Virus record (IMG/VR): IMGVR_UViG_3300015050_000977
Location: 1-58,530 of that record
Source of the DNA: a virus
Lineage: Duplodnaviria > Caudoviricetes
Direction: 5' to 3' (one strand)
DNA: 58,530 nt
This document shows positions 1,685-58,530 of the stretch, in pieces. Each line of letters starts with the position of its first letter. Position 1 is the stretch's first letter. The position numbers were made by a program, and so were the translations under genes. Under the pieces are notes generated by a model. That model did not search any database. It saw nothing but the letters and a program-made list of their open reading frames with translations, and had not been told where the DNA came from.

Positions 1685-1979
1685 CCGAGCAATATCCAAT
1701 CTGCGTGCCGGTCGCGAAGTATCCCGCCAATGTCGCCGCGCCTTCCTCGGCCCACCGCTCCGCGCTCCAGATGCCGGGACTTTGCTCAAAACCATCCGCG
1801 TCACAGACCACGTAAAAAATATCAGCTACGCCATCACAATTCACCAAGGCAACCGCCGCAATGGCATTGAACCACGCCTGTTCGGACAATCGTTCGTCAA
1901 ATCGCGCTACTGCGGTTTTGATCTGCTGTTTCGCGAACTGCGCAAACGGTGGTCATTGCGGTGGCTGGTCCTAAACTAA
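1662..1979 (+). CDS. Hypothetical basic protein (105 aa)
   Basis: ORF directly after the array, co-directional with the operon. Confidence 0.65.
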   Translation: MRIHGNLDRAISNLRAGREVSRQCRRAFLGPPLRAPDAGTLLKTIRVTDHVKNISYAITIHQGNRRNGIEPRLFGQSFVKSRYCGFDLLFRELRKRWSLRWLVLN

Positions 1980-2096
1980 ACATTACCCATGAGAGGCTTC
2001 CTCCTATTCTTCCAAATCATCACGCATCTGGTATTCTGGTGCGCTGTCGGCTACGTCGCCGTCCACTTCATCATTAAATTCTGGTAGCTGATTATT

Positions 2097-2342
2097 ATGA
2101 CCAAACCACCCATCACCGCCGCCGAACTAGACCCCGCATGGCCCGAAGCCGTGCGCTCCGCCACGCCCGCCGTCAAACTGCGCGCTGGCCACGGCCACAC
2201 GATTGAGGCGTGGTCCGAGGCGCGCAACAGGTATATGCCGCTCCAACTGCCCGGTGGCGGCATCGCGTTCACCACCGAGGCGGATCGCGACCTGGTGCTG
2301 GGGGCGATTATGGGGCTCAATATATTGCCTCCCGCTAAGTGA
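2097..2342 (+). CDS. Hypothetical protein (81 aa)
   Basis: ORF coupled (GTGA) to the helicase. Confidence 0.65.
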   Translation: MTKPPITAAELDPAWPEAVRSATPAVKLRAGHGHTIEAWSEARNRYMPLQLPGGGIAFTTEADRDLVLGAIMGLNILPPAK

Positions 2343-4072
2343 GCGCCCTCATCGACATTGACTGGGATGAGGCGCCCGTAGCGGTAGCAACGCCCCATCG
2401 CTTTGCGCTGCGCGGTAAACAGCCACAGTGGCTCGCAACGATCATCTCTGATTTTGCGACCAAATCGCGCCTACTTGTGGTAGCCCCAGGAGGCGTGGGC
2501 AAAACGACCCTCTTCGCCGCGCTCGCAGCCCACTACCACACGCTCGGCATCCGCACGCTGGTCTTGGAGAACCGCGACCGGCTCACGCGCCAGACTGCCG
2601 ACCGTATCCGCATTGAGACCGGCATCGAGGTGGACATTGAAATGGGCGACGAGCACGCCAGTCCGTTCGCGCCCATCGTGGTTGCTAGCGTGCAGACGCT
2701 GGGGCGTGTCAACCGCTTGACCGGCTTTTCGGATTCTCACTTTGGATTGATCGTCGCGGACGAATGCCACTTTTCGCTAGGGCCGCAATTCCAACGCGTC
2801 ATGTGCTATTTCCACTACGGCGCCCACAGCCTAGACCCGGACTGGAAGCGGCCCGAAGATGGCACCTACGAGGTCAAGGCTCGCTGCGCCGGATTCACAG
2901 CCACGCCAGACATCGGCGAGCGCAAGAACCTCGGTCAGTTCTTCCATCACCGCAGCGTCAATTACAGCTACCTAGAAGCCGTGCAGGACGGCTGGCTGGT
3001 CGGCCCGGTTCAGAAGAACATCCCGGTTCGCATCGACCTGTCCAAATACAAGGCCAAGTCCACACCCAACGGAAACGACTTCGCCGCGTCCGATTTGAGC
3101 GCGGCGCTCATCCCGATCATCGAGGAACTGGCCGAGCAAATCCTGATCCATGCCTCGGCCAAGAAGACCATCGCATTTCTGCCTAGCGTGGAGTGTGCCC
3201 GCATGATGACCGACGCTCTGTTGCGGCGCGGGATGCGAGCGATATTCGTGTCCGGCGAGTGTCTTGATGCGTCTGAGAAGACGGACGAGTTCGCCGCGCT
3301 CGGAGCAGGCTCGGTGTTGGTCAATTGCTGCCTCTACGTCTACGGCGTGGATTTCCCTGACGTGGACTGCATCGCGTGGTTCCGCGCTACCATTTCCAAG
3401 GCGTTCTACATCCAAGGAATCTACCGCGGCACTCGCGTATTACCCGGCATCCTGAATGGCCTAAAAACCGCAGAGGGACGTCGCGATGCCATCGCCTGCT
3501 CGCGCAAACCGTTCCTGACAATCCTTGACCCGCTGTTCGTGTCTGACCGCATTGACCTGCTAGATGCCTACGACCTGCTCACCGATGAGCCCGAGGTGAA
3601 GAAGGCCATGAAGGCGTCGGGTGAACTGAGCGTGGAGTCGGCGCAGAAGGCGGAGCGCGATTTTCTGAAGTCGCTAAAGAAGGAGGCGAAGAAGCATGAG
3701 CGGAAAGCGGCCCGCACGATTGACCCGCTCCAGTGGGCGGTATCGCTTGGCGACTCCATGATCAAGTCCTATGCGCCAACCGAGGCGTGGGAATCGCAGC
3801 CGGCGAGCGTCGGTCAACTAGACTTCATCCGCAATCAGGGCATGGAGATTGGCGGGATCACGTCGAAAGGACTGGCCTCGCGTATCATCAGCCGGCTGCG
3901 CGTGCGACAGGACAATAAATTGGCAACGCCTAAACAACTACGCCTCATGCACCAACTCGGCCTAGACGAGCAGACCTGCGCTACGCTGACCCAAGCCGAG
4001 GCCACCGCCACCATCGACCGCATCTTGCAGGGCAAGCGGGAGCGGGGTGGGCTGACGCCGGCCGTGGCGTAG
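2339..4072 (+). CDS. Superfamily 2 (DExH) DNA helicase
   Basis: Walker A PGGVGKT, DECH, FTAT, GVDFP and YIQGIYRGTR motifs. Confidence 0.92.
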   Translation: MSALIDIDWDEAPVAVATPHRFALRGKQPQWLATIISDFATKSRLLVVAPGGVGKTTLFAALAAHYHTLGIRTLVLENRDRLTRQTADRIRIETGIEVDIEMGDEHASPFAPIVVASVQTLGRVNRLTGFSDSHFGLIVADECHFSLGPQFQRVMCYFHYGAHSLDPDWKRPEDGTYEVKARCAGFTATPDIGERKNLGQFFHHRSVNYSYLEAVQDGWLVGPVQKNIPVRIDLSKYKAKSTPNGNDFAASDLSAALIPIIEELAEQILIHASAKKTIAFLPSVECARMMTDALLRRGMRAIFVSGECLDASEKTDEFAALGAGSVLVNCCLYVYGVDFPDVDCIAWFRATISKAFYIQGIYRGTRVLPGILNGLKTAEGRRDAIACSRKPFLTILDPLFVSDRIDLLDAYDLLTDEPEVKKAMKASGELSVESAQKAERDFLKSLKKEAKKHERKAARTIDPLQWAVSLGDSMIKSYAPTEAWESQPASVGQLDFIRNQGMEIGGITSKGLASRIISRLRVRQDNKLATPKQLRLMHQLGLDEQTCATLTQAEATATIDRILQGKRERGGLTPAVA

Positions 4073-4435
4073 TCACTTCAACGTCACCCGATCCAAAATC
4101 ACCTGTTGCCGGCGAATCAACTCCTGCTGATTCTCAATCATCTGCATGAGTCGGGTATCAATCTCGTCCTTCTTCGACCGCCACGTTGCGTAATCGCGCA
4201 ACACGTCCGACCTATCTTGCTTGATGGACGAAATCTCCCTTTGCGTCGTGGCGAGCGCAACGGTCGTGCTGTTGACCCAGACAGCTACGCCACCGAACGC
4301 CACGAGGCACGCCCAGAAGCCGCCCACCAATAGACGCGCCAGACCGAGCAGCGAATGCAGTCGGTCAATGTTCTTGGCCAGCTTGTCTAATTCTTCGGGA
4401 GGCATGTTGAGTAGGTAGTTATGTGCGGCCTCCAT
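4073..4435 (-). CDS. Membrane protein with coiled coil (possible lysis/holin-like)
   Basis: One transmembrane segment; located at the distal end of the late module. Confidence 0.55.
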   Translation of the reverse strand: MEAAHNYLLNMPPEELDKLAKNIDRLHSLLGLARLLVGGFWACLVAFGGVAVWVNSTTVALATTQREISSIKQDRSDVLRDYATWRSKKDEIDTRLMQMIENQQELIRRQQVILDRVTLK

Positions 4436-4516
4436 GCCGCAGATACTTAGGTATTTTTAGCTATTGGCAAAAAGGTATTTTACCCATAGTTTAAGTATTG
4501 GGCTACTGTTTAAACA

Positions 4517-5239
4517 TTAGCCGGCTCCCTTGTCGATGTCCGTCGCCATCTTGGCCGCTGTGTGAATCCGCGAGTGCAGCCACGGTGCCGTCACGCGCTC
4601 AATCGCCGAAATCGGATTCTCGCCCGCCCTGACGCCTGCCATGGCGGCACCGAGCGACGCAGGCGTAATTGAAAAGAATCTGGCATATAGCCACAGACCT
4701 CCAAGCAGCACACATACGCCGATAAGGATAGTGCTCTGGCGCTCTGATGCCAACTGCGCCGCCGCGGCCTCGGAAATAGCCACGTCAGCCGCCCTGCGTG
4801 CTGCCAGCGCCGCATCACGCTCGGTCTGCAACTGTGATGCGCGCTTGGCCTCCGCTTCGTAAAGTCGCGCCGCCTCCGTCAGCCGTCCCTCCATAACCGC
4901 CACACGCCGTTTCTCGGCCTCCAGTAGCGCCAGTGGGTCCGGCGTCGGCAACTTGGCAAGCGCGGTCGGCACCTCGCGGGCAATGAAATCCTTGGACGGG
5001 GACGCTGGCGCCATCGTGTTCGCCTCTCCGATCTTGGCGACCGATGCCGCCGCCGATGCGCCCTGCGCCGTCGTTGCCGCGTCCAGTGCGGCGGTCGCGG
5101 TTTTCGATGTCTCGGCCCGCTTGCTTGCGCCATCCAAGAACTTTGGCTTCAGCACGAACAGGCCACCGCCGATCACGGCGAGGACGATAAGGACGACGGT
5201 GAGGGCTTCAGCACGTTGGTTGGCGTTTGCGGATTTCAT
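4517..5239 (-). CDS. Membrane-anchored coiled-coil protein (possible spanin-like)
   Basis: N-terminal TM segment, Ala-rich coiled coil and a second TM segment. Confidence 0.55.
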   Translation of the reverse strand: MKSANANQRAEALTVVLIVLAVIGGGLFVLKPKFLDGASKRAETSKTATAALDAATTAQGASAAASVAKIGEANTMAPASPSKDFIAREVPTALAKLPTPDPLALLEAEKRRVAVMEGRLTEAARLYEAEAKRASQLQTERDAALAARRAADVAISEAAAAQLASERQSTILIGVCVLLGGLWLYARFFSITPASLGAAMAGVRAGENPISAIERVTAPWLHSRIHTAAKMATDIDKGAG

Positions 5240-8200
5240 TTCTTGTCGCGGCCGATCTCATTCATTATTCGCGCGTCTTGCAAGAGCAGGTAGGCGCGCT
5301 GCGGGGGTAGTTCGGCCAACCCTGCCGCAATGTCGTCACCGTTGCGGTTCAGCGCGTTCAGATAGCCGTCGTCCAGCAGCGCGGCGGAGGCTAGGTTGAA
5401 TCGCTTAGTGCGGATCATATTGATGCCTTGGCGCATCAGGCTTCCAAGCGAGCGGCCGGACTGGATGCTGCCAGATTGCCCGGTGCGCACGAACTCGGCA
5501 GCATTGACAACCTCGGGTGTCATCTTGGCCGAAATCATGGCCTCGCGGCTGGCGTCGTCCATCTTAGCCACGCCCATCGCAAACTTGCGCAACCTTTCAG
5601 CCTTTTCCGGGCCGATAGCAGCGGAGAGCTGGCTGAATCGGGTGTCCGTATCAGCGCCTGGAAGCGACTCAAAGAACGACCTTACTTTTGGCGTATCCAG
5701 ATTTACGATTTGACCCGGAACATTGCGCTCCGTGCGAATCATGCCCTGAAGTGCATTTGCAACCAACCGGCGCTCAACCATCTCAGCCAAGTCTGGCTTC
5801 TGGTCACGCAGCGCGTCCATGAACGAACGCGCCTCGGAGCGGCGCATGTTGGCTACGAGGTCCGTGACCGTGCCGGCGCCGTCGATCTTTTCGGCCTCGT
5901 TAGACAGCCGGTAGCCTCCCTTGCCTTTGAATACGCCCGTGAGCGGATTTTGCTCCGCCGCCTGCATTGCGGCCTGCGCAGCCTGAGCGTCAACGCCTGC
6001 GCGCTTGGCGAGCCCGTTGGCCTCCACGAAAGCCTCGCGAGCCTTTTGCATCAGCCCGGCCTCGCGCAGCGCCACGGCGTCATTGACGCGTTTCGTGAAC
6101 GCGACAGTGGCCATCGCTTTTGCAACCTGCGCAGGGGCGTCTTTTCCGCCCACGTTGAGCACCTGTTGAATCTGTGGCGACTCCATCACGGAGCGGATAG
6201 CGTCCGGCATCAGATCGTGCGGCTTGAACTCTTGCAGCGCCTTCGTCCAGCCCTTGATCGTGGGTGCGTCACCCATGCGGAACAGTTCGACCGGGAATGG
6301 GCTGTCTTTCTTGGCGGCGTAGCGCCCGACCAATTCACCCAGCTTGCGGTAGTCCACGCCGTAAGCATCGGTCGCTTTTTCGAGGAACGAATTGCGGACG
6401 GCGCTGCCCATGGTGGCCATGGCGGCATTCGCCACGTCCGGGTTCATCGGCTTGATCTGGTCAACGAAGGCTTTGAAGTTTTTGATTTCGTCCACATTGC
6501 CGGACGCCAACTTGTCAGCCATGCCTGCAACGGTGGAGTCGGCCACTTCGCCGCGTAGCAGCGCCCGGCCAAAGTCGGAGTCGCGCAGCTTGGACGTGTC
6601 TCTCCAGAACTGACGGAACTTCTGATACGGTTCCACCGCGTCGGGGAACAGGCGCCCGATTTCTTCAACGTGCGTGTCGGACATCGCGTGATACGTCTTG
6701 GCTGCAAGACGCTCCGCGTTGTTCATGTTGTTCGTGTCGATCTTGCCTTGGAAGCCATCGCTGATGGCGTCGCGCAGACGGCGGAAGTCATCGAGGGTTA
6801 GGAACTTTTCCTCCGGCGCGGCGACGGCCGATGCGGATTGCATAGGCTGGCCTGCTACAAGCTTACCGCCAACCGTTTTTATGCCCCCGGGGAACGCGGC
6901 ATTAAATTGAGCCGGGGTCATTTCGGTTCCGGCTAATTGCGCCTTGCGCGCCATCTGCTCCAGCGAAAGCTGCTTGGTCGCTGTTGCGTCGGCGACAGTT
7001 TTGCTTCCCCAATTCTTGATCGTCTCAAGGATGGACTTGCCTGCCACAAGCTCCGCGTCCGAGCCTAGCGCGGCCTTTGCGGCGTTGTAGAGCGCGTCCT
7101 GCCCGATGATAGCGGCATTGTCAGGAATGCCCGTAGCAGCCAGCATTTCGCCTGCCGCCTGCGACCGCGCGCCGAACAGCTTTTTGGTAATGTCCTGCAC
7201 AGCCTCCGCGTGCCCAGTCTGCGTGCCAATGGTGTCGGCGCCAACGGTCAGTGCAATACTGGCCTTGGCTTGGTCGGAGATGGCCCGCATGGTCTCGGCC
7301 TGCGCACCAGCAATAACATCGGCGCGCGTCTTAGGGTCGAGATTGGTCGCCGCCTTGGCTTTGGTCACCATCGCCTGCGCTTCCTCCATGCGCTGTGCCG
7401 CCATTTTATAGGCAGCATCAAGTTCATCCACCTTGCCAAGAATCGGCTGCAACTGCGCCGCAATCTGCTCGTTCTGCGGAGCATCGGTCGCCGTCGCAAA
7501 AATAGCCTTGGCCATCGGCGCACGAGCCGCGTCCTGTTTTGCGCGCATGGTCGGATCAATACTGACCACCTTCTGCTGCATCGCGCCGTAACGCTTCGGA
7601 AGCACGTCGCCCAGCATCGGGTCAGCCATGCCCAGTTCTTCCGCTGCCCGACGGCCCGCGTCGGCCTCAGCCTGGACCTTCTGCATGGATTGCAGCTTGC
7701 CGCCCACGCCGAGCGCGGCGGAACCAATGATCGCCGGAACGATGGCGTCCTTGAGCGAGGTTTTGTATTCGTCCCAATTGGGCGTAAGTGACTGCTCCTC
7801 GATGGATCGCTCCAGCGCATTGCCGACCGCAACGGTGGCACCGGCCGCGCCCGCGCCCTTGGCGATGTTGCCGACCGTCGATGCGCCGGGAAGCGGATTC
7901 GGCGCGCCCGAAAAGAACATCGTCTGCGCGAGCTTCGACAGCTTCGGCGTCTCGCCGTTGTTCACCGCATCCAAAAGATACGCGCCGCCGCCGACCATCG
8001 CGCGGGTCGCCATCGGGATTGCTCCAAAGCCAGGGACGGCCATCGGTGACGCGGCCATGCCGACGCGCCCCATCGTGACCATTTGCTTGTCGAGGCGATT
8101 AGCCATCTCGTCGGGCGTCCCAAATGGGCTCTTGAAAGCGGGTGGCGCATCTGAGCGCTGAACACTGGCAAGTGATGCGGAAGGGTCATGCGCGGGAGCC

Positions 8201-25689: not shown

Positions 25690-28422
25690 TTAATATACTC
25701 CGGTCCGACTGCCGTTATCATTCACGAAAGGCACGAACTCGCAATTGGCCTTGCGGAGGTAGCGGAGGCAGTTGCCCGCAACTAGCGGCCTGCGATTGCG
25801 GCGAACCAGCACTGTCTCGTTCGGCACCGAGACGCAGTAAACGCGGCCATCGTAATCACGCTGCTCAATCAGGAACTCTTTGTCGCAGTTCGTGATCGAC
25901 GCAACGCGCAGGCGCTTCTCGCCCATCATCATTAGCGGCATCGTAGACCTTACCGACCGGCCGCGAATTTCAGACTCCCAATCCATGCTGCGCACGTAGG
26001 TGCATCCATACGGTTTTCCGAGTTTTGAAAGTAGTTCGGTAACGTCGTCAATTAGGCGCGTGGATACGCTTGCATACTTGCGCTCTGTCTTGTCCTCGCC
26101 CGACATCCATCCATCGCCCAGCACCATCGCCTCCCACATCGCCTGAAGGCAGTGGCGTGGAAGCGCCATAACATCGCGCGGGATGTATCGCTCGCTCTGC
26201 GATCCGAGCGGCGAGACGATGGACCACAAATCCTTGGACGAGATACTGAAGCTCTTGCTGTAATACCTGAAGCAGAAATCAAGGCGCGTGAGTAACGCTG
26301 CGATACGGGCGTGCTTCTCGGCGTTGACCTCACTGCATTGCGAGATGTAAACGGAATACCCGCGACCCGGAATCTGGATTTTGCCGCCGTCCGTCCCGGT
26401 TGCTGAACCCTCAGCGACATACCAACCAATGAACTCAGCCCAGTCTTTCGCGGCCACGACCTTGCCTGTCCAAATCTCAATCATGCGCTCCGGCTCGTCG
26501 GCGATGCCGTTAGTTGTGATCGGGAACGTGTCCTGACGCTTGATGTCCTTGGCGAGCCTGATCTTCAATGGGGGGCGCTGCGGATAAACAAGCATCCGAT
26601 GATTTGGCGTCACGCAGAAGTTGAGCGCGTTCTGTTCGCACGCAATCATGGGGCCGGTGTAATGCCGGTCGTGATACTCAGTCGGAACCTGATACTCCAG
26701 CGCGCCGTCCTTCGCCATCGTGGCCACCGCCACGCCACGAGGTAGCGACGGGAACGGCACCCAGCCATCAGTCGTCAAGATTTCGGTCTCGGCGTCGTAG
26801 CAATCAATCGGGTCTTTCGTAGCCTCCGTCGCCCCCAATTTACCCGTATATTCCTGCAATGCGTAGATCAAGTTCTGGCACCTGTCGCTGACGTATAACC
26901 TAGGCCGGTTCAGTGCATCAATCGGCTGGTCCGTTTTGTAGGCCAGCAGGTTATTGATAAGTTGGATACCGTCCTCAATTTCACCCTTGTTTGCCTCCGA
27001 CGACGCGGCTGGAGCCGGGATAAATGTTAGCCCGGCGTCGTCCAGCTCACTGATGATGGTCGTAGCCCCGTCCTGTGACTGGCGCTCCGCGGCGCCCATG
27101 CGCGGGTCGATGATGCGTTCGTAAATGTTGCGGTCGCCGTCCGGGCCGCTCTCGGCGGTCGTGATGTGTTCGACGTAGGCTTTGATGCCGTGAATGCGCG
27201 GCGTTGTCGCCGGGCCGGGCTTGTTGCCGGGCAAGGCCCATTCCTCGTTCTCGGGTGACTCGCGGTAGACCCACCACGTATTCGCGGCGTCGATGGCGAC
27301 CCAGACCATGAACCATGCCTTGGAGCCGGCGGGGTCGAGCGCCATGTAGAACGTGACGGGATAGGGCACGTCTTGACCCTTGGCGTTCTTGCGGGTTTTG
27401 AGCCATGGGAGGTCTTCGTGTTTGACCACGTTGCCGCCGTCTTTGACGTATTCTTTGCTGAAGAGGGGGAAGGCGGAAGTCGTGGATTTCGTGGGGACTC
27501 CGAAGGCGCGGGCTAGGATTACTTCGCGGGATTCACTACCGTAGAGCTTAAGAAATTCGCGGTAGTCGGCGAATGGGTTGTCTTGCGTCCAGCAATATAT
27601 GATGCAGCACGATCCAACAGAAAGACTCTCTTGGAGGATCGGGAGATTTGCCTGAATCTTAGGGTGGTCGCAGTAGCGCGTCTGAAGCGTTTTTGTGCGT
27701 GCTAAAATTTTGGATACTAGATCGTTCCAGCCATCGACCACGGTGTAGGTCAGCAGCAGGCGTCCATGGTAAGTGCCGAGACGGCCCATGCGGAACGTCT
27801 CAAACAAATCGGTCGGGCATTTTTCGTCCATCCATGCGAAATGCGCCTTAACTCCTTCTATTATCTGTGAGTTAGAAATATACTGCTGATAATTATGAAA
27901 CTTGATTGAGCCACCGCGTCGATAGCCTTTAACGGGCGGCATGATGGCGATTCCGTCCGTAAATCCGTTCTTCTGGTTGTATTGCAGGCTGTGGGCGATG
28001 CCCTTCTTGGTTGGCATGTCCCTCAACCAACTCGGAAGCTCTTCGTAAATAAAACGCTGCTGGTCGGCAATCGAACGCTGCTCGTTGATGTGAAAATTGT
28101 AGACCTCGGCCTCGGGGATTTCGCAAGCGGCCCAGACGGACATACGGGCGCCGAGTTTCGTTTTGCCGCTTTGGTTCCCGCCAAGCAGGATCGTCACGTT
28201 ATACTTCTTCCAGCAATCCATGACCATTTCCCATGATGGAAGCGTCCATCCCCATCCAACCGGATTCTTAGCGCTCTCGGTCTCGATGAGCTGCCGACTG
28301 TGCATGTATTCCCGCAACCTCTCCTCGCTTAGCCCAGCAAGTTCTTCGGGCGTTAGCGGAGCGCGGTATGGGATTCCGAATCGAGGCTGGAACGTGTCGG
28401 CGTATTGAATCTTTTTAGCCAT
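25690..28422 (-). CDS. terL: Terminase large subunit containing an intein
   Basis: Walker A GGNQSGKT, Walker B AWMDE, nuclease LDP motif; the C-terminal KDPID|CLRY motif is split by the intein. Confidence 0.92.
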   Translation of the reverse strand: MAKKIQYADTFQPRFGIPYRAPLTPEELAGLSEERLREYMHSRQLIETESAKNPVGWGWTLPSWEMVMDCWKKYNVTILLGGNQSGKTKLGARMSVWAACEIPEAEVYNFHINEQRSIADQQRFIYEELPSWLRDMPTKKGIAHSLQYNQKNGFTDGIAIMPPVKGYRRGGSIKFHNYQQYISNSQIIEGVKAHFAWMDEKCPTDLFETFRMGRLGTYHGRLLLTYTVVDGWNDLVSKILARTKTLQTRYCDHPKIQANLPILQESLSVGSCCIIYCWTQDNPFADYREFLKLYGSESREVILARAFGVPTKSTTSAFPLFSKEYVKDGGNVVKHEDLPWLKTRKNAKGQDVPYPVTFYMALDPAGSKAWFMVWVAIDAANTWWVYRESPENEEWALPGNKPGPATTPRIHGIKAYVEHITTAESGPDGDRNIYERIIDPRMGAAERQSQDGATTIISELDDAGLTFIPAPAASSEANKGEIEDGIQLINNLLAYKTDQPIDALNRPRLYVSDRCQNLIYALQEYTGKLGATEATKDPIDCYDAETEILTTDGWVPFPSLPRGVAVATMAKDGALEYQVPTEYHDRHYTGPMIACEQNALNFCVTPNHRMLVYPQRPPLKIRLAKDIKRQDTFPITTNGIADEPERMIEIWTGKVVAAKDWAEFIGWYVAEGSATGTDGGKIQIPGRGYSVYISQCSEVNAEKHARIAALLTRLDFCFRYYSKSFSISSKDLWSIVSPLGSQSERYIPRDVMALPRHCLQAMWEAMVLGDGWMSGEDKTERKYASVSTRLIDDVTELLSKLGKPYGCTYVRSMDWESEIRGRSVRSTMPLMMMGEKRLRVASITNCDKEFLIEQRDYDGRVYCVSVPNETVLVRRNRRPLVAGNCLRYLRKANCEFVPFVNDNGSRTGVY
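25771..26802 (-). mobile_element. Intein (344 aa) with a LAGLIDADG-type homing endonuclease domain
   Basis: Begins CYDAETEILT, block B VTPNHRM, endonuclease helices FIGWYVAEG and AMVLGDG, ends VYCVSVP...AGN followed by Cys+1. Confidence 0.92.
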
Positions 28423-55164: not shown

Positions 55165-55635
55165 ATGCCCCGCTACACCACCGAGAGAGAATTGGCCATC
55201 GCACGCCGTAGCATGGGCGAGCCCAACGTCGTGATCCCGCCCGCGCCAAAGAAGCGCAAGAACGAGGAAAGCGCCGCCCAGTGCGAAGTCATCAAGTGGT
55301 GGGCGACTGCGTGCAAGGCTTATGACATTCCTGAAATTCTGCTGTTCAGCATCCCGAACGGAGGCCGGCGCGATCCACTGGCCATGATTTTTCTCAAACG
55401 AGAGGGGCTGCGCAATGGCGTTCCCGATTTGTTTCTGAGCGTCCCGCGCGGACACTGGCATGGTCTTTACGTCGAAATGAAGACAGCGACGGGACGCGTC
55501 AGGGATGAGCAGCATGAATTTATTGAGTCTGCGCGCGTGAATAACTACGTCGCATTTGTGTGCCGCAGCGCAGAGGACGCGAAGGCCATTATTGAACGGT
55601 ATCTAACTAATCCAAGCCAACTGCATTCGGCCTAA
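55165..55635 (+). CDS. VRR-NUC domain nuclease
   Basis: IPNGG, GVPDL and YVEMK motifs. Confidence 0.9.
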   Translation: MPRYTTERELAIARRSMGEPNVVIPPAPKKRKNEESAAQCEVIKWWATACKAYDIPEILLFSIPNGGRRDPLAMIFLKREGLRNGVPDLFLSVPRGHWHGLYVEMKTATGRVRDEQHEFIESARVNNYVAFVCRSAEDAKAIIERYLTNPSQLHSA

Positions 55636-55729
55636 CATCAAGACCCGACAACCCAGCCCCGAATACTACGGCGGTCACTTCAAGCCCTGCCAAATCTGCG
55701 GGGATAGCGGCTGGATAGAGGCTCAACCT

Positions 55730-56089
55730 ATGAACCCGAAAAAGACCGAAACGCTCACCCTCGCCGACGCAATGGATGCGCTCGCACGCGACATCCAATC
55801 TGGCGACGGGATCGCCAACGCAGCTATCGCGGAAGCGGCCGACCGCCTGCGCGAAACGCTAAAGGAAAACAATCGCCTCGACGGACTAATGGCGCAGCGT
55901 GACGAGCGAATCGTTGCGCTCCTACAAGAAGTGGACGAGCGCCGCCGCGACGCACAGAAAGACGCGGCGCTCGTGGGGCGGCTTCGCCGGGCGCTGGCAG
56001 ATGCGATAACCACCTACGACCCGACGCGGAAAGAGACTCTCGTGACTGCCGAGCGGCAAGAAGCGTGGGCCGCGGCATTGGCGTCATGA
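55730..56089 (+). CDS. Hypothetical coiled-coil protein
   Basis: Last fixed gene before the array. Confidence 0.7.
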   Translation: MNPKKTETLTLADAMDALARDIQSGDGIANAAIAEAADRLRETLKENNRLDGLMAQRDERIVALLQEVDERRRDAQKDAALVGRLRRALADAITTYDPTRKETLVTAERQEAWAAALAS

Positions 56090-56133
56090 CTTCGCCCAAC
56101 ATACCGGTGAGCAACACCGACACGAACACCTAA
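56086..56133 (+). CDS. Leader mini-ORF MTSPNIPVSNTDTNT crossing the first crossover
   Basis: ATG overlaps the upstream TGA; reads the core AAC as Asn, like every cassette gene. Confidence 0.5.
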   Translation: MTSPNIPVSNTDTNT

Positions 56134-56223
56134 AAACTTTACGACCATGACAAAACATAATCCTACTCAAAACATCCGCCGAAGCCTGAAGCTGTCGGTG
56201 TTGGCTCTAGTGGCTGGTTCGGC
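56094..56223 (-). repeat. attC-like site (GCCCAAC...GTTCGGC)
   Basis: Stem CAACACCGACA/TGTCGGTGTTG. Confidence 0.85.
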
Positions 56224-56431
56224 TCCGTTCTTGCTGTGCTCAAGCTACCGCACGAAGGCCGGCCAGTGGGTCCGCATCGTCGATGAATCCACGCTCAAAG
56301 GCTACGAATGCGTGAAGGGCGACGACGGAATCTGGCGCTACAACCGCGAGAGCGACCGAGGACGAGTGACCGGCTCAGCCTTCGACATGAGCGACCCCAG
56401 AAATCTTCTGCCGAACGCCCGAGGTGACTGA
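56147..56431 (+). CDS. Cassette hypothetical protein (94 aa)
   Basis: Starts in the attC loop; contains YRTKAG..VRIV...GRVTG. Confidence 0.7.
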   Translation: MTKHNPTQNIRRSLKLSVLALVAGSAPFLLCSSYRTKAGQWVRIVDESTLKGYECVKGDDGIWRYNRESDRGRVTGSAFDMSDPRNLLPNARGD

Positions 56432-56604
56432 CCAACGCCCCGCGAGCGCAGATCAACCCAACCAACTCTAGCCATGCTCTCCGATACTCTCGCAAAAGGA
56501 ATCGCTCAACCGCCGGACGTGCGGACCAAAGACGGTGCGCGCGTAGATGGCACTCACGAACAACAGCCCCGTGCAGGGGCGTTGGGTCTAGCGACTGGTT
56601 CTCC
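56410..56604 (-). repeat. attC-like site (GCCGAAC...GTTCTCC)
   Basis: Stem ACCAACGCCCC/GGGGCGTTGGGT; TGAC duplication in the left arm. Confidence 0.8.
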
Positions 56605-56612
56605 CTCTTTTT

Positions 56613-56858
56613 ATGACGATCAAACAACTCAAGGCGACAATCGCCAACATGCCCGACGAATGGCCGGTATACTTCCGGCGGATCGCGCCGCTCTGCGGCA
56701 ACGTGGAAGAAGCCGGAACGATCAACGCCGACAAATACAGCTCTTTTGGGACGCTCTATCCATGCGCCATCATCGAACCCGTGAAGGACGATGAGGAGAA
56801 CACCCACGCTGAGACAGGACCACGGCAGGACGCGGCACCGAAACGCCCTATCGCGTGA
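56613..56858 (+). CDS. Cassette hypothetical protein (81 aa, MTIKQLK...MPD)
   Basis: Typical phage MT.xxL...LPD start; stops in the next attC loop. Confidence 0.7.
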   Translation: MTIKQLKATIANMPDEWPVYFRRIAPLCGNVEEAGTINADKYSSFGTLYPCAIIEPVKDDEENTHAETGPRQDAAPKRPIA

Positions 56859-56892
56859 AGCCGTGGGCCTTGTCTCTGGCAAATGGTTAGGC
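56795..56892 (-). repeat. attC-like site (GGAGAAC...GTTAGGC)
   Basis: Arms GAGACAGGACCACGGC / GCCGTGGGCCTTGTCTC. Confidence 0.85.
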
Positions 56893-56902
56893 TCTTCTTA
56901 AA

Positions 56903-57142
56903 ATGCAAAATATACCTTACGACGACTGGCGCTCCAAAGCCGCCCGCGAAATTGCAGACGCTCTCCGCGAAGAAAACCAGCGCGTGGCCTACTATGCGTC
57001 TGGGCAGGGCGACGGCTGGGCGCGCTCCTACGGTGCAGGCAACTTCAGGAGCCCCGACTACGCCTCGATAATCGACCGGCACTATCAGGCTTCGCTCGCC
57101 AAGCCTAACGCGGAGATGAGGGACGAGCCCGAACGTAAATAA
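56903..57142 (+). CDS. Cassette hypothetical protein (79 aa)
   Basis: Ends KPNAEMRDEPERK inside the next attC. Confidence 0.65.
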   Translation: MQNIPYDDWRSKAAREIADALREENQRVAYYASGQGDGWARSYGAGNFRSPDYASIIDRHYQASLAKPNAEMRDEPERK

Positions 57143-57290
57143 ACAACATGGATACACCCACAAAAGACCTCGCCGCTGCTCAAGTGCGCGGCCACGACAC
57201 CGGCCCCGTTGGCGCTCATGCGTCGAGCGCACTCCCTCCGTCCGAATCGCAGGGCCAGTCGGCTCGTTCCTCTCGGGCGACTGGTTCTCT
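57103..57290 (-). repeat. attC-like site (GCCTAAC...GTTCTCT)
   Basis: Arms GAGGGACGAGCC / GGCTCGTTCCTC. Confidence 0.8.
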
Positions 57291-57447
57291 TCCGGGGTGG
57301 GCCGTCGATACTCTAGCGGAAAGCTGGCACGTCTCCGCAATCTTCGACGGAAATAAACACGTCCGCGCGACACTCGACCGATGCCTCAAAGAACTGCGAG
57401 CGGCGCAGGCCCGTGCGAATAAGCGCCAGCCTGAAGAGAACGACTGA
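57148..57447 (+). CDS. Cassette hypothetical protein (99 aa)
   Basis: Starts in the attC loop. Confidence 0.65.
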   Translation: MDTPTKDLAAAQVRGHDTGPVGAHASSALPPSESQGQSARSSRATGSLPGWAVDTLAESWHVSAIFDGNKHVRATLDRCLKELRAAQARANKRQPEEND

Positions 57448-57628
57448 GATGTGCCACGAGCCCGCTGAACGGAGAAAAACAATATGCAAATCAGAACGAA
57501 ACTTGGACTAGTAGATATACCGAACGAAGTCATCATGGCTGCCGCGCGGGACATAGCGGGGAGCGCAGACAGCACTCCCGAAATCGCGGCCCCATCGGGC
57601 TCGTTGTGCACTGGCGATTTGGTTCACC
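57435..57628 (-). repeat. attC-like site (AGAGAAC...GTTCACC)
   Basis: Arms GTGCCACGAGCCCG / CGGGCTCGTTGTGCAC. Confidence 0.85.
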
Positions 57629-58005
57629 GTCTGGGGGAAATCGCTGCCGCTGCGCCATTCGGTGATGCGGAATGGAATCGGACGCTCCAAGACGCGACAA
57701 TGGCGCTGCGCGAAATAGAGGAGGGCGCGAGCGACATGCACGAAGCACACGACAATCTCGCGCTCCTGCTGCGTCGCGCGGCGCGCAAGATAGACCCGCG
57801 CGACCCGCTGCGGACTGAGTGCGTGGCCTACCTCAAGCGCATCGGGCAGGCGGGAAATCCACTGCGCGGCGTGACTGCCGCACAAGATGCGGAGCCGCTC
57901 CCGGCTTCAGACCTCACCGACATGCGCGAAGCCGGAGTTTTATCTTCGGTGAACGTCCCTGATGAGCCGACGCGCGGAGCGTCGGACAAACTGAATACAA
58001 AATGA
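57484..58005 (+). CDS. Cassette hypothetical helical protein (173 aa)
   Basis: Starts in the attC loop; ATGA-coupled to the next gene. Confidence 0.7.
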   Translation: MQIRTKLGLVDIPNEVIMAAARDIAGSADSTPEIAAPSGSLCTGDLVHRLGEIAAAAPFGDAEWNRTLQDATMALREIEEGASDMHEAHDNLALLLRRAARKIDPRDPLRTECVAYLKRIGQAGNPLRGVTAAQDAEPLPASDLTDMREAGVLSSVNVPDEPTRGASDKLNTK

Positions 58006-58080
58006 AAAAGACACGAGCGGAGAAGGCACTCCCGAAAAACAGCCCCCGTAAGCGCGTTGGCTCTGGCAGGCTGGTTCGGC
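57948..58080 (-). repeat. attC-like site (GGTGAAC...GTTCGGC)
   Basis: Stem GAGCCGACGCGC / GCGCGTTGGCTC. Confidence 0.88.
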
Positions 58081-58310
58081 CTCTGGGGCTCTGGGCGGTG
58101 ATAATCTACACGCCCCAGACAGAGTGGATAAACCACTGGACGATAGCACGAACACGCACCGAAGCGCGTAAGCTATACTTTTCGCTTTGGACTGAGGCAA
58201 AACACCCCAAGAGGCACATTCGCAACGGCAGCGCCGCCCTTGTTCGGGTGACGCTTTCTTTGGCCGGGCCGAACCGGCGCATATCAGCCGCGCCCGTCGA
58301 ACTCCTCTAA
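58002..58310 (+). CDS. Cassette hypothetical basic protein (102 aa)
   Basis: Starts in one attC loop and stops in the next. Confidence 0.7.
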   Translation: MKKTRAEKALPKNSPRKRVGSGRLVRPLGLWAVIIYTPQTEWINHWTIARTRTEARKLYFSLWTEAKHPKRHIRNGSAALVRVTLSLAGPNRRISAAPVELL

Positions 58311-58399
58311 ATCCTCTCCATGAAAACCAAACTCAAGAAAACCCCGAAACGTAAGCCAGCCGGACAGACAAGGGCGTTGGCTGTGGATGCTGGTTCGCA
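58268..58399 (-). repeat. attC-like site (GCCGAAC...GTTCGCA)
   Basis: Arms CAGCCGCGCCC / GGGCGTTGGCTG. Confidence 0.8.
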
Positions 58400-58530
58400 A
58401 TCCGATTCTTCAATGCTCGACTTCATCGAGGCAAACGAAGCGTGGATTACATACGCCAGCGACCACGCCAAAACGGACAGGGCGTGGCGATGCCAAGTCG
58501 CCGAGCGGCGATTCCCGTCGCCGGACATTC
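58320..58530 (+). CDS. 5' part of the origin-spanning cassette gene
   Basis: ATG at 58320 is in frame with ORF 6..254. Confidence 0.75.
   Translation, partial: MKTKLKKTPKRKPAGQTRALAVDAGSQSDSSMLDFIEANEAWITYASDHAKTDRAWRCQVAERRFPSPDI
58408..58530. repeat. Terminal direct repeat, copy 2
   Basis: Identical to bases 1-123. Confidence 0.95.

Follow-up and report, generated by a model that had tools for sequence, protein, structure and literature searches.

We analysed the 58,530 nucleotides (nt) of a viral DNA (Duplodnaviria; Caudoviricetes; positions 1 to 58,530 of IMG/VR record IMGVR_UViG_3300015050_000977), hereafter the window, and focused on an array in which 11 small plus-strand open reading frames (ORFs) of 79-173 amino acids (aa), all reading a recurrent AAC triplet as Asn, are separated by 11 hairpin sites. 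Our results indicate that this stretch is probably a phage array of integron-type gene cassettes without an integrase of its own, i.e., a cluster of attC sites without an integron integrase (CALIN), whose sites belong to a family of Opitutaceae (Verrucomicrobiota) and whose genes follow a codon-phase rule at the cut position within AAC, written here as AA/C. Since the window ends overlap by 123 nt, the array is a single continuous stretch running from 55636 across the ends to 1642.

Every junction between two ORFs carries a conserved 26-nt arm, GCGTTGGCTsTGG-nnn-CTG-GTTCggc, and a looser inverted copy of this arm, beginning with AAC, sits upstream, where the preceding ORF ends. The reading frame of the arm differs from ORF to ORF, and the arm is therefore kept as nucleic acid and not as protein. 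A sequence-only model of the arm, for which the 11 window sites were the training sequences, recovered these 11 sites, all on the plus strand and all within the array, the next best match scoring 8.1 bits (E 0.2). The AAC and GTT triplets that delimit the sites are invariant (11/11), with a triplet-to-triplet span of 85-182 nt. The two cores of one hairpin share 3-8 bp of complementarity only; the AAC-side core, by contrast, pairs without mismatch along 7-13 bp with the GTT core lying across its own gene body, in all 11 window units, and the two ends of each cassette covary. The same pairing, with a stem of at least 7 bp and a unique best partner, was found in 44 of the 52 units of the phage arrays described below. 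In nine of the 11 window junctions, the minimum-energy fold, with features taken by eye from dot-bracket structures, comprised an outer stem pairing AAC with GTT, then an internal loop, and an inner stem of 10-17 bp closed by a large loop, which conforms to the attC scheme of an imperfect palindrome with two paired boxes on either side of an unpaired spacer and a terminal loop of variable size. The z-scores ranged from -0.2 to -3.2 relative to mononucleotide shuffles.

Arrays bearing the same arm directly adjoin integron integrases, which supports the attC-type assignment already made in the preliminary description of this DNA. In a Horticoccus isolate genome, a 456-aa ORF immediately beside the first site scored 370 bits on the integron integrase model TIGR02249 (cut-off 265); in the viral contig G003, the recombinase adjoining the array scored 308 bits on the same model, and in G012 a recombinase fragment follows the array. 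Because such same-arm arrays adjoin TIGR02249 integrases, we consider the sites as attC of a verrucomicrobial integron lineage. G003 carries a complete viral integron, with IntI at 506-1732 of locus L054 (minus strand) and an array of at least nine sites at 1854-6730, the cassette ORFs of which face the integrase. No match to PF00589 or PF00239 was found in the whole 58.4 kb of the window genome, and no tyrosine recombinase in two other complete relatives or in the partial relative G002. The window array is thus a CALIN, an attC cluster in a genome without an integrase: with 11 sites in 58.4 kb, it falls within that definition (at least two attC sites, no integrase nearby), provided that the sites are attC. 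A serine recombinase (resolvase) is present at G004:C1:36797-37225 in the closest relative of the window phage and not in the window.

A pattern scan of bacterial genomes returned 100 stretches, and 35 of the 80 listed carried Verrucomicrobiota labels, mostly Opitutaceae, a family to which we take Horticoccus, Lacunisphaera, Didemnitutus and Ereboglobus to belong. In these bacterial loci the arm model gave 149 matches (E <= 0.01) in 38 loci, comprising the 35 with Verrucomicrobiota labels plus L087, L098 and L135. The Horticoccus isolate alone holds at least 82 arm matches, on one strand, at a contig end and on many small contigs, a count that is a lower bound since 150 of 2,499 candidates were scored. 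Its genome, G011 (L156 = G011:C8:116500-135490, L157 and more contigs), harbors a very large chromosomal integron, with 27 sites within 15 kb beside the integrase, many small contigs made of cassettes only, and one cassette with a 308-309-bp body that recurs many times. The Horticoccus sites span 130-132 nt and are near-identical in sequence; all 27 examined show the own-cassette core complementarity, over 7-9 bp, and their cores are GTTGGGC (11), GTTAGGC (8), GTTCGGC (4) and GTTAGCC (4). Among viruses, the arm model identified arrays in five other contigs, namely L001, the closest relative, and four further ones obtained by combining the pattern scan with the model; the remaining viral loci from the pattern scan were mostly single, probably chance, matches. 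One array-bearing virus, the complete 69.9-kb phage genome G001 (L048-L052), displays five separate site clusters on both strands. Judging by the site family alone, the host of the window phage is probably a member of the Opitutaceae.

The Horticoccus integron also sets the orientation of the sites. Its integrase and the conserved arm lie on one strand, and the cassette ORFs lie on the other, pointing away from the integrase. This layout is canonical; hence, the conserved arm lies opposite to the canonical top strand and is complementary to the R''-L'' arm, and the window plus strand corresponds to the attC bottom strand. It also follows that the AAC of the window is the recombination core G/TT seen as AA/C. 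The core that the preliminary description had called left is accordingly not the inverse core R'' but R', read on the bottom strand. The integrase binds the bottom strand of attC (PMC3053210, accessible text), and the cut is placed at G/TT (PMC9892861, accessible text). Since the plus strand is the bottom strand, the phage ORFs are antisense to the usual cassette orientation. Two adjacent bacterial cassette ORFs (L156, 4022-4588 and 4675-5307, plus strand) share their opening peptide, ...HASRRPL(S/A)WLIFDV..., an indication that attC is partly translated in those cassettes too, in canonical orientation. An argument that the inner box had the wrong orientation for attC was dropped once the arrays adjoining IntI had been found.

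The antisense arrangement raises the alternative that the real genes lie on the minus strand in canonical orientation, the plus-strand ORFs and their Asn frame being shadows of GC-rich coding. The Horticoccus ORFs do lie opposite to the conserved arm; furthermore, both strands are similarly open in the phage arrays, and ORF length leaves the coding strand undecided, with the opposite-strand ORF overlapping more in 25 of 42 intervals. However, minus-strand ORFs cross whole sites and several cassettes, whereas the plus-strand ORFs display ATG starts, ATGA overlaps and the direction of the flanking operon, and the protein family phrog_9244 matches a plus-strand body. The excess of GC at third over first codon positions (GC3-GC1) is higher on the plus strand in 31 of the 42 intervals, codon-position GC being weak support for plus-strand coding of the bodies, with leaders and tails unlike typical coding sequence. 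Likewise, by our own count, 10 of the 17 listed differences along 57441-57954 fall on plus-strand third positions and four on third positions of the minus-strand ORF, and bacterial cassettes scored on this same strand show no frame preference (see below). We therefore regard minus-strand coding as very improbable.

With the plus strand taken as coding, a phase rule becomes apparent at the AAC core. The preliminary description stated that ORFs cross this core in one frame at 12 of 12 junctions, and all 12 tripeptides ending in Asn are present at the positions given. The pattern is confirmed at 11 of the 12, where the tripeptides belong to genuine small ORFs. The exception is the first, SPN at 56092-56100, which occurs solely in a 15-codon mini-ORF from the ATG at 56086, the upstream 119-aa ORF having already stopped. 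A boundary core missed in that description, GCCTAAC at 55630-55636, lies in the next frame, its TAA being the stop of the VRR-NUC gene. The chance of 11 of 11 in one frame is (1/3)^11, or 5.6e-6.

We then scored the frame across the arrays of all six phage contigs. Of 52 units, 44 passed the requirement for a single best partner with a stem of 7 bp or more. Three of these were then removed by hand, for a wrong distant partner, for an AAC within a long ORF, and for an open frame of only 20 codons, which left 41. AAC was read as Asn in 33 of these 41 confident cassettes, eight were in the next frame and none in the third. The window contributed 10 of 10 Asn cassettes to this tally, its eleventh unit being dropped on a tie and Asn-phased by reading. 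The 31 confident cassettes of the related phage arrays gave 23 AAC codons, eight next-frame and zero third-frame readings, with a probability of 3.9e-6 for 23 or more of 31 at 1/3. Among the eight next-frame cassettes, seven have TAA stops within a TAAC core and one reads CAA. Thus, the expectation of a non-random frame in homologous arrays was borne out; the frame is not universal, a stop codon inside the core representing a second state. The eight units that failed the filter comprised five in the Asn frame (the tied eleventh of the window, G001a 1452, two tied units and G005 6321), two in the next frame (G004 2101, and a unit with a TAA stop and a single G·T pair) and one in the third (G002 5135, stem 5). 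Serving as a control, 50 Horticoccus cassettes scored with this script and on the same strand distributed as 10/17/23 over the three frames.

This regularity could be a passive by-product at attC sites, arising from descent from one duplicated junction or from a preference for CCG-AAC codons. Many cores do read GCCGAAC, that is, Pro-Asn with G/C-ending codons, and some junctions are clearly related to each other. Against such a by-product, the joins are independent, as the bodies are unrelated and their lengths differ modulo 3; the same cores show no preference in the bacterial array; and the third frame is absent from 41 of 41 cassettes, the sole common alternative being precisely the frame that makes a stop. 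On balance we judge this account unlikely, and favor a phase rule that would be maintained by selection for correct termination or coupling.

The phase is tied to how these genes end and begin. As previously proposed, the ORFs terminate within the next site, 11 of them stopping 2-19 codons past AAC, and the overlaps of stop and start at 58002, 652, 981 and 1334 (ATGA or GTGA) are indeed present. ORFs without a stop of their own borrow one from the neighboring site: of 44 junctions, 41 have a frame-0 stop 6-66 nt past AAC, also where the upstream gene ends on a TAA of its own, and the next frame stays open for more than 200 nt in four of 10 window junctions. The start codon lies in the hairpin loop for 24 of the 41 cassettes, and in 11 others it must follow GTT. 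Several cassettes show a T-rich run and then an ATG 13-17 nt past GTT (window 56598 and 56886; L048 2494; L050 oriented 1513); these constitute a second type, in which the gene starts after the site instead of in the loop.

The features of the array, all on the plus strand and listed in circular order, are as follows (for sites, the arm interval is that of the conserved arm X).
55630-55636: terminal half-site GCCTAAC; nucleotide homology with L001 ends at 55636.
55730-56089: first small ORF, 119 aa, with its own TGA stop at 56087-89, 9 nt before the core at 56098-56100; the site upstream of this ORF is decayed, the arm model giving no match there.
56098-56223: attC-type site a, AAC to GTTCGGC; arm 56192-56229, 26.0 bits; folds as a hairpin; a contig of another sample covers exactly 56098-56219.
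56147-56431: cassette ORF, 94 aa, ending LPN, then ARGD and stop; residues 25-86 match phrog_9244 (E 2e-5).
56414-56604: attC-type site b; arm 56574-56611, matched by the arm model.
56613-56858: cassette ORF, 81 aa, ending EEN plus 18 aa; starts 15 nt past the GTT of site b.
56799-56892: attC-type site c, with canonical core GTTAGGC; arm 56860-56898; inner stem of 16-17 bp.
56903-57142: cassette ORF, 79 aa, ending KPN plus 10 aa.
57107-57290: attC-type site d; arm 57259-57297, matched by the arm model.
57148-57447: cassette ORF, 99 aa, ending EEN, then D and stop; L001 has a related cassette with the same core extension.
57439-57628: attC-type site e; arm 57595-57635, matched by the arm model.
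57484-58005: cassette ORF, 173 aa, ending SVN plus 16 aa; ATGA overlap with the next start.
57952-58080: attC-type site f; arm 58049-58086, the best arm model match (28.9 bits); folds.
58002-58310: cassette ORF, 102 aa, ending GPN plus 11 aa.
58272-58399: attC-type site g; arm 58368-58405, matched by the arm model; folds.
58320-58530, then 124-254 through the 123-nt overlap: cassette ORF ending FAN plus 12 aa.
213-402: attC-type site h; arm 371-400; fold z = -3.1.
257-655: cassette ORF, 132 aa, ending DSN plus 12 aa; ATGA overlap; body between perfect 13-bp inverted repeats (396-408 / 604-616).
614-796: attC-type site i; arm 762-801, matched by the arm model; folds.
652-984: cassette ORF, 110 aa, ending KPN plus 11 aa; GTGA overlap.
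946-1049: attC-type site j; arm 1017-1055; fold z = -3.2; 12-bp inner inverted repeat (958-969 / 1021-1032).
981-1337: cassette ORF, 118 aa, ending PPN plus 8 aa; ATGA overlap.
1308-1419: attC-type site k; arm 1389-1424; homologous to a site of G001.
1334-1684: last cassette ORF, ending SPN plus 13 aa.
1636-1642: terminal half-site GCCGAAC at the opposite array end; the phage backbone resumes here, with L001 homology back from 1630.

A second AAC-type motif at 1097-1131, inside ORF 981-1337, is read as SAN, with ...GTG ATG behind it, and resembles a decayed junction of the kind that the fusion of two cassettes would leave. Pfam and PHROGs scans of 10 cassette proteins gave a single PHROG match, the Pfam matches being sub-threshold only, and an Rfam scan of 55400-58530 returned nothing but one sub-threshold snoRNA-like match. 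As for the surrounding genome, the 123-nt repeat shared by the window ends closes it into a circle of 58,407 bp, and the record is classed by its collection as a complete virus with direct terminal repeats; the window is thus a complete circular podophage genome of 58.4 kb. Genes for an SU10-type major capsid protein and the large terminase lie on the minus strand, and those for DnaB, RecT, an exonuclease, a DUF2800 nuclease, VRR-NUC and a helicase on the plus strand, the array being flanked by VRR-NUC (55165-55635) and the helicase (2339-4072). The large terminase ORF (25690-28422, minus strand, 910 aa) shows a weak LAGLIDADG match at residues 760-803, which may correspond to an intein or homing-endonuclease insertion.

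The modules delimited by these cores occur in other contexts. Contigs from four sequencing runs of four studies (wastewater, activated sludge) match parts of the array stretch with 88-100% likeness and break at the cores. The sequencing runs contain 12-17% of the sampled words of this stretch, so that none of them contains this phage, and parts without contigs are uninformative. The AAC-to-AAC unit 56798-57110 is 100% identical in a 1,588-nt contig of run X5 in which both flanks are unlike; a 514-nt contig corresponds exactly to 57441-57954, and at least four differing continuations follow position 57954. The AAC core therefore represents a real module breakpoint, as anticipated in the preliminary description. 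Its second expectation, the exchange of C-terminal tails, is likewise supported, since homologous proteins agree as far as a shared N and have unrelated short tails beyond it: in other assemblies, homologues of ORF 57484-58005 retain the body through SSVN, VSPN or FPPN, after which come unrelated tails of 1-17 residues. Some homologues of this ORF have the same leader and first part of the body and a different C-terminal half, which shows that exchange inside bodies also occurs. In addition, a body alone (56884-57110, ~92%) and a hairpin alone (56803-56882) were found with different partners, and three homologies between viral contigs are restricted to the junction, exactly from AAC to GTT. 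Between the window and L001, the array is replaced from one terminal core to the other: this closest relative shows 89% identity in DUF2800 and 75-90% nucleotide identity on both array flanks, but what the two have in common in between is limited to short motif matches and one distantly related cassette.

Such shuffling could in principle be brought about otherwise, the repeats being regulatory RNA hairpins or homologous-recombination linkers, comparable to the PeSL motifs of T4-type phages, with no tie to integrons and with RecT-type swapping within the arm. RecT and an exonuclease are encoded just upstream of the array, an integrase is missing from the window, modules break at both cores, and the hairpins enclose stop and start codons, all of which would fit. 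Nevertheless, arrays with the same arm directly adjoin integron integrases in three records, the 7-bp complementarity of a core with the far end of its cassette is a classical cassette signature, and unlike units share 4-7 bp at the AAC side, which is too short for homologous recombination. We consequently assign little likelihood to homologous-recombination linkers, and retain the integron reading. Sigma-54 promoters, tRNA T-arms, miniature inverted-repeat transposable elements (MITEs) with target duplications, shufflon-type inversion sites and IS200/IS605-like ends were also considered, and discarded on account of unfitting spacing or flank relations, the sites being accounted for thereafter by their link to the integrase.

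Several observations weigh against the reading of the array as integron cassettes governed by a phase rule. An integrase is absent from the window and from the two other complete relatives; hence, recombination at the window's own sites is something we infer. The ends of attC sites are typically an inverse core RYYYAAC and a core GTTRRRY; the full GTTRRRY is present in one of the 11 window sites (GTTAGGC, 56886), the other 10 being GTTC..., and six of 11 exceed 141 nt, the upper limit of the 57-141 bp attC size range given in the accessible text of PMC3053210; moreover, as regards the extrahelical bases expected on a folded attC bottom strand, the window folds give asymmetric spacers only. Modules break at the GTT core as well, and crossover at one core leaves these breaks unexplained; by analogy with chromosomal integrons, they may reflect site homogeneity or conversion. 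No such lock on the frame exists at the GTT core (11/10/3 among 24 cassettes with an ORF start upstream of GTT), and the phase rule could partly stem from shared descent of junctions and not from selection. Finally, a tblastn search with the 12 window cassette proteins against 745 kb of bacterial loci gave no match.

The organization of the array nonetheless suggests a mechanism by which order could change at little cost. Read along the plus strand, a cassette would consist of the C of the cut core, a first hairpin arm carrying the phase-0 stop for the upstream gene, the hairpin loop, in most cassettes with the cassette's own start codon, the conserved second arm, translated as part of the leader, and a gene body ending in ...AA. 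In this scheme, phage genes would reach the crossover without a stop of their own, and two endings would be permitted: AAC read as Asn followed by a stop a few codons into the neighbor's arm, or TAA in a TAAC core. As stop and start both lie within the downstream cassette, they would travel together, and the upstream gene would need only to enter the core in phase 0 or to have a TAA stop there. An integron integrase, supplied by the host or by a phage such as G003, would cut the folded plus strand of the window's sites at AA/C; because every cassette obeys the phase rule, the exchange would alter only the short C-terminal tail, and the stop would stay near the next start. Translation into the site may in turn open the hairpin for the next gene, by analogy with class 1 integrons (PMC8876359, accessible text), the array itself providing the stop/start geometry. 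More tentatively, and with a little less than even confidence, we propose that Opitutaceae phages keep their own pool of bottom-strand cassettes with a codon-phase convention at AA/C, such that any reordering by an integrase would yield a gap-free coupled operon in which the sites are translated. A convention of this kind resembles the intron-phase rule that permits exon shuffling.

The array can be placed among known systems. It shares with integron cassettes, attC sites and CALINs the imperfect hairpins delimited by AAC and GTT, the 7-bp core complementary across the own cassette, and the presence of IntI beside the arrays of relatives. It differs in that the phage genes run on the bottom strand and overlap the sites, with the start in the loop, the arm translated and the end crossing the crossover point; most window cores are GTTC..., and some sites reach 182 nt between triplets. 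Sedentary chromosomal integrons are known for homogeneous attC sites, such as the Vibrio cholerae repeats, and Horticoccus resembles them in its near-identical sites and many small cassettes. The ORFs of the Horticoccus array are canonical, in contrast to the diverged sites and inverse orientation of the phage arrays. CALINs have been reported in virulent and temperate phages, and in the same study (Qi et al. 2023, PMC9892861) IntI1 recombined five of the six phage attC sites assayed; in the accessible text of that study, such clusters are defined by a minimum of two sites, and no reading-frame rule is described. Stem-loops of attC in mRNA hinder ribosomes, an effect relieved by translation into the site with termination-reinitiation, as for ORF-11 and other short ORFs (PMC8876359); in the phage, unlike ORF-11 coupling, the upstream gene itself enters the sites in a fixed phase, as known here from sequence alone. 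PeSL motifs flank small variable genes in hyperplastic regions of T4-type phages and mediate modular shuffling; as far as the accessible text of PMC2839356 goes, they are intergenic promoter/terminator motifs acting through homologous recombination, whereas the window sites, of attC type, are located within ORFs and show a link to integron integrases. In a limited literature search, the combination of bottom-strand genes, sites inside coding sequence and a codon-phase rule at the cut was not found.

The usual picture of an integron cassette is that of a gene with a non-coding site behind it, and attC clusters in phages have been reported only recently. The sites of this array lie within coding sequence, on the unusual strand, and the frame rule at the cut would allow genes to be exchanged while termination is preserved. 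Should a host or phage integrase truly shuffle these units, the array would represent a site-specific route to mosaicism of phage early genes, and would link phage gene pools to the very large chromosomal integrons of Verrucomicrobiota.

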